From: Candidatus Gastranaerophilaceae bacterium
GTDB taxonomy: Bacteria > Cyanobacteriota > Vampirovibrionia > Gastranaerophilales > Gastranaerophilaceae
DNA: 64,000 nucleotides
Direction of reading: 5' to 3'
NCBI GenBank assembly: GCA_045638605.1
Contig: JAZUBS010000034.1
Coordinates: forward strand, 30,112 to 94,111
Part shown: one piece after another, positions 59,348 to 63,915 of the stretch
Numbering within the stretch: the stretch's first letter is position 1
Layout of the letters: each line of letters opens with the position of its first letter
Translations under genes and position numbers: made by a program
The notes under the pieces: generated by a model
What the model saw: only the letters and a program-made list of their open reading frames with translations
Told to the model about the DNA's origin: nothing
Databases searched by the model: none

Positions 59348-61762
59348 TTATTTATCTGATTTTATTCTCATACCGTAGAATGAGCGGTAAACAAAGAATA
59401 ACGCTACAAAGAAGAACACTGTGCCTACATAAGGCGCATATTCTTTAAAGCTTTCTGAAATAGCGATTTCCATAGCTAACAAACCAAACAATGTTGTAAA
59501 TTTAATAATTGGGTTCATCGCAACGGAAGAAGTATCTTTAAATGGGTCTCCCACTGTATCACCAACAACTGTTGCTTCATGCAAAAGAGTTCCTTTTTCA
59601 GCTAAATCAACTTCAACTATTTTTTTACCGTTATCCCAACATCCGCCTGCGTTTGCCATAAATACAGCTTGGAACAAACCAAATACAGCAATTGCAATCA
59701 AATAGCTTACAAAGAACGCAACTGGTTCATTTGAGCCAACAGGAGCTGAGAAAAACGCAAACGCTAACGCAAATGAGAACAATGCTATAAAGATATTAAG
59801 CATACCTGATTGCGCATATTGTGTACAAATTTTTACAACTTCTTTTGAGTGTTCTGTTGCAGCTGTAGCAGAACTATTATCATCAAGATTAATATGTTCT
59901 TTAATGTATTTTACAGCTCTGTATGCACCAGTTGTAACTGCTTGCATTGAGCTTCCTGTAAACCAATAAATAACCGCTCCACCTAAGATAAATCCTAGAA
60001 TAGTATATGGGTTAAGCAAGTTCAAAATAGCTTCTGGCTGAATCCCCAAAGTATCTCTAATTACCAAGATTAATGAGAAAATCATTGTTGTTGCACCAAC
60101 AACAGCTGTTCCAATTAATACTGGTTTAGATGTTGCTTTAAAGGTGTTTCCAGCACCATCATTAGCTTCTAATAATTTTTTAGCTTTATCAAATTTAGGT
60201 TCAAAACCAAAATCATTTTCAATTTGTTTATCAATTCCTTCGATATTTTCAATCAAAGATAATTCATAAACAGATTGAGCGTTATCGGTAACTGGCCCAT
60301 AACTGTCTACTGCAATTGTAATTGGACCCATTCCCAAAAATCCAAATGCCACCAAACCAAATGCAAAGACAGATGCATAAACCATTAATTCTGATGGGAT
60401 ATAAAGGCTTGCAAAATAAGCAACAGCCATCAATACAACGATTGTTAAACCAATCCAAAAACCAGAGAAGTTACCAGCAACTAAACCGGAAAGAATAGTT
60501 AATGAAGAACCACCTTCACGAGATGCTGTAACAACTTCTTGTGTATGTCTTGCTTTTGTACTTGTGAATACTTTTGTAAATTCAGGAATTAACGCTGCAC
60601 CCAAAGTACCACAAGAAATAATTACTGACATAATTAACCATAAGTTATTACCCATAGAACCTAATTGCCAATAGCTTACGCCAAATGTCATAATGATTGA
60701 CAAGATTGATGTTATCCAAATTAAAGAAGTCAATGGAGCTTCAAAATCCATATCTTCAACTTTTGAATATTTAAATTTACCAATAATATCGTTAACTTTG
60801 TAAGCGATTACAGAAGTAACAATCATTAAGAATCTCATTGTGAAAATCCAAGTTAACAAAGGAATTCTTGATTCTTCTGATACCCCTAACAAAATGAAAC
60901 TAACAAGAGCAACACCGGTTACCCCATAAGTTTCAAATCCATCTGCAGTTGGTCCAATAGAATCGCCCGCATTGTCGCCTGTGCAGTCTGCAATTACGCC
61001 TGGGTTTCTTGGATCATCTTCTTTGATGTTGAATTGAACTTTCATCAAGTCAGAACCAATATCAGCAATTTTAGTAAATATTCCACCAGCTACACGCAAA
61101 GCTGATGCACCTAATGATTCACCAATTGCAAATCCGATAAAACAAGCGCCAGCTAAATGTCCAGGAACAAAAAGCAAAATTGTAAGCATCAAAATCAACT
61201 CAACACTTACAAGAATTACACCAATGCTCATACCAACTTGAAGAGGTATTCCTAAAATATCATAAGGTTTTCCTTTTAGTGCAACGAAAGCTGTTCTTGA
61301 GTTTGCCAAAGTATTCATTCTAATACCATACCAAGCAACCCCATAAGAGCCTAAAATACCGATTACAGACCAAGCCAAAATCATTAATACGCCTTTTGCG
61401 TCAAGGTCTTGTAATACACCAAAGTAAAAACCAATACAAATCGCTATTAATACTTCTAATAATACTAAGAATTTACCTTGTTGAACAAGATAAGTTTTAC
61501 AAGTTTCAAAAATCAAATTACCAACCATTAGCATTGATTTATGTGCTTTAATATTTTTTACATTAAAGTATTGAATAATACCAATGATAATACCCAAAGC
61601 ACTGATTACAATACCAGCTACTAGTAGATTATAGCTGTCTTGATGCGCTGCAAATGATGGAACAACTAAGTCTGCTTCTCCTGCCAAAGCTGGCATTGTT
61701 GAAAAAAGCAGGGTACTTAGCATAGCAAACATTGCAAACACAAAATTTTTCAAATGTTTCAT
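59348..61762 (-). CDS. hppA: membrane-bound proton/sodium-translocating pyrophosphatase
   Basis: 804 aa, polytopic. Motifs: GDNAGDSIGPTADGFETY, DNVGDN-like ADCTGDNAGD, GDTVGDPFKDTSSVAMNPIIKF. Confidence 0.95.
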   Translation of the reverse strand: MKHLKNFVFAMFAMLSTLLFSTMPALAGEADLVVPSFAAHQDSYNLLVAGIVISALGIIIGIIQYFNVKNIKAHKSMLMVGNLIFETCKTYLVQQGKFLVLLEVLIAICIGFYFGVLQDLDAKGVLMILAWSVIGILGSYGVAWYGIRMNTLANSRTAFVALKGKPYDILGIPLQVGMSIGVILVSVELILMLTILLFVPGHLAGACFIGFAIGESLGASALRVAGGIFTKIADIGSDLMKVQFNIKEDDPRNPGVIADCTGDNAGDSIGPTADGFETYGVTGVALVSFILLGVSEESRIPLLTWIFTMRFLMIVTSVIAYKVNDIIGKFKYSKVEDMDFEAPLTSLIWITSILSIIMTFGVSYWQLGSMGNNLWLIMSVIISCGTLGAALIPEFTKVFTSTKARHTQEVVTASREGGSSLTILSGLVAGNFSGFWIGLTIVVLMAVAYFASLYIPSELMVYASVFAFGLVAFGFLGMGPITIAVDSYGPVTDNAQSVYELSLIENIEGIDKQIENDFGFEPKFDKAKKLLEANDGAGNTFKATSKPVLIGTAVVGATTMIFSLILVIRDTLGIQPEAILNLLNPYTILGFILGGAVIYWFTGSSMQAVTTGAYRAVKYIKEHINLDDNSSATAATEHSKEVVKICTQYAQSGMLNIFIALFSFALAFAFFSAPVGSNEPVAFFVSYLIAIAVFGLFQAVFMANAGGCWDNGKKIVEVDLAEKGTLLHEATVVGDTVGDPFKDTSSVAMNPIIKFTTLFGLLAMEIAISESFKEYAPYVGTVFFFVALFFVYRSFYGMRIKSDK

Positions 61763-61879
61763 ATATGCCTCCTATAAACTAATAAACAAATTTCATCTTA
61801 AATTATACTATATTTTACAAAAAAATGATAATTTATTTATAGGATAATTAAATTTTTAGCCTATAGGCTAATTATATTT

Positions 61880-62027
61880 AAATTATAATTTAGCGGTGTA
61901 AATAAAATCAAAAATTAGCAAACAGTAGGGTGCTGTCTTTAGCCGCACCACAAGATTTGAAAAATAATCGGTGCGTCAAAACGACGCACCCTACATAACT
62001 AAATTTTTCGCTAGATTAAAATCTTCC
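61880..62027 (+). repeat. modular repeat element, copy B, with REPIN-like doublet
   Basis: Near-identical to 42084 onward. Units at 61925-61949 and 61970-61994 are separated by 20 nt. It lacks the ~105-bp module inserted in copy A after CTACATAACT. Confidence 0.85.
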
Positions 62028-62110
62028 CTACGTTCTGGTATAATTGCAACCCTCTACACACGAAGTCAATTGCGACTTTATGTTTTTAAATCTGACATTT
62101 CTTGGCGAAA

Positions 62111-62521
62111 CAACGAAAGAGGAGCCATTTGTTTGAGCGAAGCGAGTTATGGCTCCTTGGGTTGAGCCTTGAAATGACGAGAGAAAAACATCCAGTCGCT
62201 AGCCTTTTGCTTACTTTTGCGCAATGGCAAAAGTAAGTCGCAAGGGCTTCAGCCCGCGAAAAATTGTTTTTGAATTAAATTATATGTTACATTTTTCTTT
62301 TGTTGCGTGCAAAAGAAAAACGTAACGCAAAAAGAAAACACGCCGACCGTTAGAGAGAGTAACGATTTTGCTGGAATTTTTTAATGCTTTTTTTGCAAAA
62401 AAGCTCGAAAAAAATTCTGGCGCAAAATCGAACTCTCTCTATCCCGAAGTTAGGTCAGGTGGGCTCAAGCCGCCCCCCTGAAACCCCTTGCTAAAGCGGC
62501 AACGCCGCTATGGCGGAGATT
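62111..62521. other. hairpin-dense GC-elevated non-coding segment (candidate structured RNA or nested palindromic elements)
   Basis: Stems found by hand: 62111-62146 (8 bp), 62200-62227 (11 bp), 62234-62245, 62276-62316 (17 bp, 1 mismatch). Also 62342-62430 (89-nt three-tier hairpin), 62485-62499 and 62503-62521 (8 bp). No plausible ORF. Confidence 0.5.
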
Positions 62522-62747
62522 TCATCTCCGCTATTGTCTCCATTCGTAAAATTTATATTTAAATTATCATGGACAGTAATGGAATTCATTTCAGCATCTG
62601 TCGGAAAGGCTTTCGGAGAATGATTTAGGGTTTTCTTTTTCTAAAGATAATAATTTTTTCCCTAGTTCTCCCTCCAGATCTCGAAACAGTCCGAAGTAGG
62701 TTTGTAACAAAATGTAAACGTAAATTTAAAACAGCCTCAAACCCTTA

Positions 62748-62780
62748 TAAAATCGACGAATAGAATAGAATAGAATAGAA
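62748..62780. repeat. pentanucleotide microsatellite (GAATA)x6.6
   Basis: gaatagaatagaatagaatagaatagaatagaa, ~85 nt upstream of the 62865 start codon. Confidence 0.95.
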
Positions 62781-62864
62781 TAGAATAGAAATCCCTATGA
62801 CAATTTATAAAGTTCATTTGTTTTGTATAAATGTAAACTATGAAAAATGCGAAAGGGAAAAGTT

Positions 62865-63515
62865 ATGTGCAATAATGTAGTTATGCGTCCGACAAGTAGG
62901 GCTTTAGCTGAATTACGTTCGGCAATGAATAAGGCCGCAACCGCCGTTAAGACAAGTCCACGACGTGATAAATTAACTGATATTTTAAATGAAATAAGTC
63001 TTAGAACAAATCCAATTTCTGAAAAAAATCGTGAACTTATTGAATATAGCCGATATAATGGGCAGTTAGTGCGCACATCAAGACGCTTGTACACAAAGCA
63101 AGAAATGTTAGACCTGTTTGCATACGAAAAACAGCGCTTATCAGGAATCATTGAGGATCTGAGCAAAGAGCGTACTGAGTTGAAAGAAGAATTAAAAAGA
63201 TGGCATAGTATGATAGATCGTATTAAACTTGAGGGCGTAGATGCAAATTTAGCGTTTGCTAGTTCTTGTTTGGCTAAACTAAAAAGTTTGGATATCAATA
63301 AAGTACCTAAAATCGGTAAGTTTTATGATTATCATCATAACTCAGAAAATGTCTTTTATCGATCAGTTTCAAAAGAGGAAGTTTTAAAGATGTTGTCTCC
63401 TTCTGATGCAAAAGTTTATAAAATAGCGTGCGAAAAAGGTGTTGATTGGGATACCGCTGTTAATATGGCTAATGATATTGCTAATAATAAAAAACCTTGG
63501 TGGCGTTTTTGGTAA
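62865..63515 (+). CDS. hypothetical coiled-coil protein ending in KKPWWRFW
   Basis: AGGGA RBS 6 nt before the ATG at 62865 (the in-frame ATG at 62847 lacks an RBS). Natural K/E/L-rich composition, unlike the S/L/R/F-rich antisense ORF 62795..63298. Confidence 0.6.
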   Translation: MCNNVVMRPTSRALAELRSAMNKAATAVKTSPRRDKLTDILNEISLRTNPISEKNRELIEYSRYNGQLVRTSRRLYTKQEMLDLFAYEKQRLSGIIEDLSKERTELKEELKRWHSMIDRIKLEGVDANLAFASSCLAKLKSLDINKVPKIGKFYDYHHNSENVFYRSVSKEEVLKMLSPSDAKVYKIACEKGVDWDTAVNMANDIANNKKPWWRFW

Positions 63516-63559
63516 TTTTGAAGGTTGAGTGAAACCCAATAAATTATGAATTTAGAATG

Positions 63560-63583
63560 AAAGGTAGACTTTGGTCTACCTTT
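63560..63583 (+). terminator. REP-family hairpin acting as a likely terminator
   Basis: Perfect 10-bp stem AAAGGTAGAC/GTCTACCTTT, loop TTTG, followed by GCTATTTTTATT. Same module as 42258 and 1201. Confidence 0.6.
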
Positions 63584-63915
63584 GCTATTTTTATTCAACA
63601 ATTTGTTGTATATTTTAAAAATTTTTATTAATTTTTGTAAAACTTTTCGAAAATTTATTAAGAAATTATTACAATTTTAATAAATTTTTGAAGTTAGCAA
63701 TTGACGCCAAATCATGTTTATTATACATTTAACTATACACTAGCGGGAATGGGCTAAGAAGTTGGGGCTGGTGACTGAAACAAATAAGGTCAAGCCAAAA
63801 CTAAATAACTCAAGCTAGAGAGGCGAAAAGCCAGTTCGTTGAAAATGGAATTAAGGATATTGCCTCACGTAGCTCCGCAAGTAAAGTTACTAAGTAAACA
63901 AAAGGTAAGAACTGA

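Follow-up and report, generated by a model that had tools for sequence, protein, structure and literature searches.

The DNA discussed here is a 64,000-nt window from a Candidatus Gastranaerophilaceae bacterium (assembly GCA_045638605.1, contig C34:30112-94111; genome label G000, 2.02 Mb in 35 contigs), and our subject within it is an array of stable hairpins in the gap between two genes. The nearest matches to its hppA gene come from MAGs assigned to Gastranaerophilaceae or Gastranaerophilales, lineages of gut Melainabacteria. The gap of ~1.1 kb (61763-62846) separates hppA (59348-61762, minus strand) from an orphan open reading frame (ORF) of 222 aa (62847-63515, plus strand), which has no significant Pfam match. 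The longest ORF within it measures 64 aa, which agrees with an earlier note on this DNA that had seen no credible ORF there. As that note also stated, the hairpin segment is richer in G+C (0.41-0.445) than the adjacent non-coding spacers (0.17-0.28); the genome as a whole stands at 0.31. Folded over 62020-62720, the segment reaches -233 kcal/mol on the plus strand (z = -8.2) and -230 kcal/mol on the minus strand (z = -8.9), and none of the 20 dinucleotide shuffles per strand attained the native fold on either strand. A search of the segment against Rfam 15 gave nothing at the gathering thresholds and noise alone at E <= 10, bearing out the first impression that no Rfam family could be recognised. 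The structured DNA is wider than the 62111-62521 originally delimited: it covers at least 62034-62597, and 61879-62690 when neighbouring modules are counted. In a search of the same genome, per-base copy number ranged from 3 to 35 across the entire interval 61879-62690, and the flanks were unique. Between the array and the orphan ORF, at 62758-62792, lies a (GAATA)n pentanucleotide tract.

The array proved to be a mosaic of dispersed repeat modules. A 741-nt query (62020-62760) matched 57 places in the 2.0-Mb genome, and 61879-62020 recurs as well; five modules, R1 to R5, were delimited by end points common to many copies, which gives them sharp boundaries. R1 (61879-62000, 122 nt, no strand assigned), the 'repeat copy B' of the earlier note, exists in ~15 full copies and contains an inverted pair of GTAG-headed hairpins (61925-61949 / 61970-61994, inverted repeat I1) that resembles repetitive extragenic palindromes (REPs) and their inverted doublets (REPINs). 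The GTAG head (GTAGGGTGC...GCACCCTAC) occurs in R1 only, and a 27-nt hairpin within it (61969-61996) has ~35 copies. R2 (62034-62169, plus strand, 136 nt) comprises the 5' two-thirds of a long hairpin, H1, and seven copies stop precisely at 62169. R3 runs from 62171 to ~62470, again with shared end points; R4 (62471-62597, plus strand, 127 nt, ~6 copies) ends in ...ATCATGGACAGTAATGGAA; and R5 (~62582-62688, no strand assigned) is ~100 nt long and present in ~13 copies at ~79% identity. Position 62170 is an insertion point that is empty at this locus and is occupied in five other copies of the element by a 96-nt module, R6, which lies between R2 and R3 on contig C35, follows R2 in four further copies and also occurs free-standing. 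R6 is absent from this locus, from the copy on contig C29, from the sister species and from other genera, and its insertion leaves at most 1 nt of ambiguity and no target duplication. R6 is therefore a nested insertion that lacks a target duplication.

Copies of the modules are exclusively intergenic, stand in all orientations relative to the adjoining genes and vary in module order, and an alignment of long copies shows compensatory changes in every hairpin. About 8% of the genome's non-coding DNA has at least three other copies. At least 10 contig ends lie within copies of these repeats, which thus break the assembly. Taken together, these data show that short dispersed repeats of several families, all non-coding and GC-elevated, have piled up locally to form the hairpin array, which is similar to a bacterial interspersed mosaic element (BIME) and is not a single RNA gene. 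Among the readings first proposed for the segment, an array of nested palindromic mobile elements has held up, as all parts of 61879-62690 recur in the genome and R6 sits inside another module; one large structured non-coding RNA (ncRNA) has not, as the segment splits into modules that are found separately and in other orders. Three further candidates were discarded. R4, which ends in ATGGACAGTAATGGAA, is not the leader of a gene family: the frames downstream of its copies are 10-52 codons long and unrelated. A Microviridae prophage remnant was not supported by tblastn searches of the genome for VP1, VP2 and VP4, which were negative, and CRISPR-related repeats or an RNA anti-CRISPR find no CRISPR array in the assembly.

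At the centre of the array is a coherent core unit of ~190 nt, consisting of the hairpins H1 and H2, with the modules carrying H3 to H7 after it. H1 (62071-62201, plus strand) is a long irregular hairpin, and a covariance model of H1 (also labelled R1, not to be confused with the module) scores this copy at 101 bits. It has an outer stem at 62072-62087 / 62184-62199, an inner stem at 62121-62128 / 62149-62156 and a 19-nt apical loop word, TGTTTGAGCGAAGCGAGTT (62130-62148), which holds a mini-hairpin, GCGAAGC, at 62137-62143. The outer stem bridges the R2/R3 junction and encloses a 130-nt domain; because it pairs across it, the R2/R3 border is not a natural boundary. H2 (62197-62249, plus strand) consists of a leader, TCGCTAGCCTTTTG, and the perfect 11-bp stem reported before (62210-62220 / 62227-62237) with the loop GCAATG. 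Known recombination sites do not account for H2: the 11-6-11 geometry at this locus is reminiscent of an Xer/dif site, but other copies have loops of 4-7 nt and stems of 10-14 bp, and the GTTRRRY/RYYYAAC boxes of an integron attC site are missing. A hammerhead-like core was also considered and rejected, as its GCGAAAC and UGAG words stand in the wrong order and no Rfam match was obtained.

Downstream, H3 (62286-62326, no strand assigned) is the 17-bp stem of the earlier description, found at 62286-62302 / 62310-62326 with one mismatch; it is of polypyrimidine/polypurine type, has the loop TTGCGTG, constitutes inverted repeat I9 and occurs in copies with compensatory changes. H4, the 89-nt three-tier hairpin, does exist, although at 62352-62440, the position first given (62342-62430) being 10 nt too far left; it has no assigned strand and 15 copies in this genome and the sister species (G004) together, with compensatory variants at the apex. 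A search with an H4 word found no match in species genomes or viral contigs, and two chance matches in JGI metagenomes. H5, H6 and H7 (~62449-62493, 62497-62509 and 62513-62531; span 62449-62533) are GC-rich hairpins taken from the fold, with compensatory variants between copies such as GCGGC/GCCGC versus GCGAC/GTCGC. The last two are the adjacent GC clamps noticed at the outset, the second of which had been truncated by ending the segment at 62521.

Homologs with compensatory changes, on which the earlier note had made its reading partly depend, exist both in the sister species and across at least nine genera. In the sister species, a contiguous H1-H2 unit is 79-82% identical, and RNAalifold on the two species gives 66 pairs, 10 of them with double changes (48 pairs and nine double changes for H1 alone), with each single-sided change producing a G-U pair on the plus strand. 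A structure-blind MAFFT alignment of 24 H1 copies from at least nine genera contains 22 pairs, 20 of which show double changes; 87% of the cells are paired versus 65% in shuffles, and the covariation score is 0.60 versus 0.22 in shuffled alignments (0 of 500 as high) and at most 0.21 in slid controls. The ratio of G-T to A-C combinations, 31:7, makes the fold strand-specific, and H1 is more stable on the plus strand by a mean of 4.6 kcal/mol. H4 has no consistent strand preference, which explains why the strand clues had seemed to conflict: the conflict is real, with H1 and H2 favouring the plus strand and the 89-nt hairpin neither strand consistently.

How widespread is this unit among relatives? 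A BLAST search with H1-H2 detected it in 21 of 151 family genomes, via the apical 65 nt. The covariance model, which finds seven copies in the present genome, has matches in 136 of the 301 genomes in our sample of the order, and the strong ones all fall in one family; 29 of 58 sampled genera are positive, the maximum in one genome is 11 copies or more, and four congeners of our genome have zero matches. H1-H2 is thus shown to be a conserved, strand-specific fold that about half of the Gastranaerophilaceae genera carry in many copies. H1 copies often form head-to-head inverted doublets or tandem clusters; the doublets are two inverted units, so that terminal inverted repeats are only mimicked. 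In other genera, the hairpin downstream of H1 is of H2 type, or else an H3-type polypyrimidine hairpin and a GC-rich hairpin stand there; the arrangement in the window thus elaborates on a conserved order. No recurrent neighbour protein was found within 1.5 kb of 25 family copies.

The apical loop extends far beyond the family. When the loop word TGTTTGAGCGNAGCGAGTT was scanned in one genome per species, at least 120 loci were found, against ~17 expected by chance in our own estimate, and the matches listed include Acidobacteriota, Bacteroidota, Bacillota, Beta-, Gamma- and Deltaproteobacteria, Nitrospirota, Patescibacteria, Elusimicrobia and others. Complementary flanks (at least 8 of 10 bases) accompany 96 of 122 (79%) of those listed matches; random sequence gives 5%. 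With one mismatch allowed, five of 12 named genomes checked hold 14-89 copies (Flammeovirga sp. OC4, 89; Clostridium sp. KNHs205, 74; Ralstonia mojiangensis, 57; Variovorax, 19; Undibacterium, 14), and a reversed control word occurs 0-6 times. In 21 of 83 cases the loop word has an H2-type tail on its downstream side, and in none of the 83 on its upstream side; the Undibacterium tail reads TCGCCTTCTTTTGCTTACTTTT... as compared with TCGCTAGCCTTTTGCTTACTTTT... in the window, and the H2-type loop of Flavobacterium, GGGCAATGC, is the same as in Microviridae. In Flammeovirga sp. OC4 (L493, G358:C1:8500-10500), three tandem 350-nt units carry one H1-H2-type element each. No recurrent neighbour gene was seen around ~120 cross-phylum copies, 18 cross-phylum loop loci had no Rfam match at the motif, and no Rfam model or paper describing a loop-word repeat was found, the literature on the loop word and on Melainabacteria repeats yielding nothing relevant. 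H1-H2 apparently belongs to a very widespread, undescribed family of strand-specific hairpin repeats. As a separate observation, one locus of Clostridium sp. KNHs205 (L494, G356:C3:2961800-2963200) has two inverted loop words 22 nt apart in a near-perfect palindrome of ~300 nt, with a folding energy of -170 kcal/mol.

Phage genomes carry parts of the unit as well. In the sister species, the modules are confined to two phage-like contigs of 46-48% GC (host, 31%), L102 (G004:C82) and L103 (G004:C111). The latter is circular and ~13.45 kb in size (its 13,591 nt include a terminal overlap of 141 nt), and it carries genes of the terminase, portal-type, capsid and amidase kinds. On either contig, these and other repeats crowd the intergenic gaps, make up more than 15% of the length and include arrays of ~63-nt period. 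The modules are almost wholly absent, with one short match, from 80 related IMG/VR loci, among them a contig whose terminase is 85% identical; they are therefore invaders of these phages and not conserved phage signals, which rules out a conserved functional element of this phage lineage. H2 with its leader (62199-62241) is 90-94% identical to non-coding DNA of seven gut Microviridae records, in which the loop GCAATG never varies and the base pair closing it is swapped. Neither GenBank phages nor the four Microviridae records tested yielded a match for H1. The records with H2 include MG945831, MT135370, MG945191 and MH572371; the non-coding region of MG945831 is, at 1.85 kb, unusually long. 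Distant phyla and phage genomes are thus shown to contain the invariant H1 apical loop and the H2 tail too, as hairpin repeats in multiple copies.

Several features of H1 point to a role of the folded DNA strand itself. The loop centre fits the GCGNAGC / GCGNNAGC mini-hairpin rule, in which two G-C pairs close GNA or GNNA and N is free: the window has GCGAAGC, relatives have GCGCAGC, GCGTAGC, GCGATAGC and GTGCGAAGCAC, and across phyla N is A in 40, C in 30, T in 19 and G in 7 of the matches listed. Such sequences form an extraordinarily stable DNA mini-hairpin (Hirao; PMC13037366). Known instances occur in the Microviridae phages G4, ST-1 and alpha3, at their complementary-strand origins, as well as in RSF1010 (ssiA) and in the early promoters of phage N4 (PMC13037366). 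Orientation relative to replication was read in a complete, single-contig relative (G203), where the H1 sense strand lies on the C-rich strand in all 11 copies and two orientation switches coincide with GC-skew switches at ~0.33 and 1.29 Mb; a second relative, G199, has the same orientation in 11 of 13 clear cases. For H1-H2 only, the loop and the replication-linked orientation in these two relatives thus partly favour the idea, raised in the earlier note, of a DNA-level hairpin or recombination site.

None of the repeat systems with which we compared the unit matches it fully. Among the closest are REPs and BIMEs, which depend on REP-associated tyrosine transposases (RAYTs; Nunvar et al. 2010, PMC2817692): they too are extragenic, multi-copy and hairpin-forming, combine motif families in variable orders, form inverted doublets as in REPINs and leave no target duplications, and R1, at the left of the mosaic, is a true GTAG-headed REP doublet. 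However, H1 to H7 have no GTAG head and come in units of 40-190 nt, H1-H2 is ~190 nt long where a REP is 20-40 nt, it conserves its loop rather than its stem, its loop word spans many phyla, and it is not linked to Y1/RAYT. Among 151 family genomes from 60 genera, 57 genomes and 34 genera have RAYT-type Y1 genes (~180 aa), and only four of the 21 genomes that are H1-positive by BLAST carry Y1. The present genome itself has ~35 GTAG-type REP hairpins, yet no RAYT-like Y1 gene. With the non-autonomous IS200/IS605 derivatives known as palindrome-associated transposable elements (PATEs) and with the omega-RNA scaffolds of TnpB, H1-H2 shares the lack of terminal inverted repeats and target duplication, strand-specific hairpins, a structured, covarying non-coding core and, in some genomes, an orientation coupled to replication; unlike in these systems, TnpA and TnpB are missing from this genome, and in G203 and G199 the H1 sense strand lies on the leading-strand template, whereas the active (top) strand of IS200/IS605 elements is expected on the lagging-strand template. 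A guide RNA of TnpB, IscB or IS110 type was rejected, as no nuclease or recombinase gene recurs beside ~145 copies examined. MITEs (miniature inverted-repeat transposable elements) such as Correia/NEMIS, Nezha and bcr1 are likewise small, non-coding, multi-copy, intergenic elements with long hairpins and sometimes promoter-like boxes, but neither the R6 insertion nor the doublets of genome G094 show a target-site duplication, the ends of R2-R4 are not inverted repeats, and no related autonomous insertion sequence was found among the neighbours of the 25 family and ~120 cross-phylum copies.

On balance we lean, by a little, towards the view that H1-H2 units are selfish or portable hairpin elements of single-stranded DNA (ssDNA) that are spread or tolerated in a replication-linked way. 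The sense strand would act as folded ssDNA capped by the GCGNAGC mini-hairpin, and some trans-acting or host factor would recognise the folded unit during replication. The spread of the units would involve neither terminal inverted repeats nor target duplications, and they would land preferentially beside or inside each other, which would give mosaics like the one at this locus. A number of points weigh against such elements. Their mobility is argued from copy number, patchy distribution and one nested insertion, and no empty or filled version of an orthologous site was recovered. No mobilising enzyme was found, neither Y1_Tnp (PF01797) nor TnpB being present in this genome, and a dependence of H1 on RAYT is rejected because H1 and Y1_Tnp do not co-occur across the family. 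This genome itself shows no replication-strand bias (two of six clear cases), nor is a bias obvious, by eye, in Clostridium sp. KNHs205. Where a bias does exist, in G203 and G199, it puts the sense strand on the leading-strand template, opposite to IS200/IS605; work by Ton-Hoang and colleagues from 2010 reportedly has ssDNA transposition of IS200/IS605 in the orientation opposite to such a placement. Moreover, conserved loops, covarying stems and G-U-type pairs on one strand would suit an RNA equally well, and R2 contains an extended -10-like box, TGGTATAAT (62037-62045), 5' of H1 and pointing into it, which fits an RNA reading.

This brings us to the alternative that survives best, although we regard it as unlikely: H1-H2, possibly with H3-H7, may be a multi-copy structured small RNA (sRNA) gene on a repeat, transcribed on the plus strand from the box at 62037-62045, with an invariant 19-nt loop that would bind a conserved protein. 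In its favour, the covariation is strong, loops and internal loops are conserved, and single-sided changes lead to G-U pairs on the plus strand only. TGnTATAAT is retained in six of eight copies in this genome, a promoter scan gives 10 of 12 matches plus the TG, and the conservation of the loop across phyla suggests a conserved binding partner. Yet the promoter-like box is not kept in other genera, the plus strand has no intrinsic terminator, and the head-to-head doublets, whose 5' ends are 15 nt apart, leave no space for promoters. Nearly all copies in G203 and G199 would be transcribed head-on to replication, the occurrence inside one genus is patchy, and a GNA triloop on a 2-bp stem is a mark of stability in DNA, not in RNA (PMC13037366).

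If the folded strand does act as DNA, it could also serve a different purpose. We consider it improbable that H1-H2 is a signal of the single-strand origin (sso) or single-strand initiation (ssi) type, a folded ssDNA start for host primase or RNA polymerase that would be used by phages and elements with an ssDNA stage, the chromosomal copies being secondary. The presence of GCGNAGC in the origins of G4, ST-1 and alpha3 and in ssiA (PMC13037366) is in keeping with this, as is H2 in the non-coding DNA of the seven Microviridae records, in one of which it lies ~220 nt downstream of the replication-initiator gene. The ssoA origins of rolling-circle plasmids carry a conserved recombination site B (RSB, TTATGCCGAGAAAATTT) and conserved sequence 6 (CS-6, TAGCGT) in a strand-specific hairpin of ~160 nt (PMC4598088, PMC5703833). 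H1-H2 loosely resembles them, and the G4-type origins of Microviridae, in being a long, imperfect, orientation-specific hairpin of ~130-190 nt with a GCGNAGC-type mini-hairpin or a CS-6-like word in its apical loop (NAGCGA, near TAGCGT/A), but it has no RSB motif, just a recurrent GCGAAAC, and is dispersed on chromosomes, not beside a rep gene. TAGCGA is a variant form of CS-6, and the H1 loop matches it only when N = T. In addition, the lack of H1 in the four tested Microviridae records and in GenBank phages speaks against this idea, as do the chromosomal copies in G203 and G199, which lie on the leading-strand template, where a priming signal is of little use, and the up to 89 chromosomal copies per genome, which it leaves unexplained. 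Very improbable is an artefact of assembly, in which contig ends bearing repeats would have been joined chimerically into a module order that does not exist in the cell: contigs of this metagenome-assembled genome do break in these repeats at no fewer than 10 places and the locus coincides with a synteny break, but the order R2-R3-R4 is found independently on C35 and C29, the order H1, H2, H3 and GC-rich hairpin recurs in other genera, and the stems of H1, which covary with those of the sister species, span the R2/R3 junction.

As for the locus itself, the mosaic probably has no dedicated function for the adjoining genes and lies at a synteny break between hppA and the orphan gene. Relatives with an hppA of 78-89% DNA identity stop matching window 61763-63915 upstream of that gene; the sole relative whose genes were read there (L009) has two lipoprotein-like genes and an HD-domain gene. 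The window instead has hppA, the repeat mosaic, the orphan gene and then rpsJ, so that the mosaic marks the break. An exact-protein look-up for other strains returned none for hppA and only one 1.4-kb contig for S5. Elsewhere in this genome, R5, REP and R2 modules are often near members of a set of ~19 paralogous pilin-like genes (for example C23:63201-63959, C24:8016-8744, C12:77815-78420, C29:18990-19769 and C16:269-1027), which have a prepilin-type N-terminus (...KKAFSVAEAMIALLIGSVALGMAAPMITKQIK) and conserved 5' ends and upstream regions.

A broader proposal can be made, which we put forward tentatively and hold to be doubtful. H1-H2 may be an undescribed pan-bacterial element, spanning at least eight phylum-level groups as well as ssDNA and small double-stranded DNA phages: a portable ~190-nt hairpin read from one strand, with an invariant 19-nt loop built on GCGNAGC and a conserved TTTTG-hairpin tail, whose ssDNA would be recognised by a universal replication or repair factor of the host. 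Its role might then be that of a priming or initiation signal that can be transferred, or that of a handle by which a transposase-independent spread takes place at replication forks.

The mosaic explains why the assembly of this genome breaks, why intergenic DNA in it is GC-rich and 'empty' and why synteny is broken in at least one place, and it cautions against annotating the segment as a unique ncRNA gene. As the 19-nt loop does not change between Gastranaerophilaceae and Clostridium, Flammeovirga, Ralstonia or Acidobacteriota, and the tail is found in Microviridae, whatever reads it must be very conserved. Culturable carriers make two questions testable: what recognises GCGNAGC-capped hairpins, and how repeats without a transposase spread.

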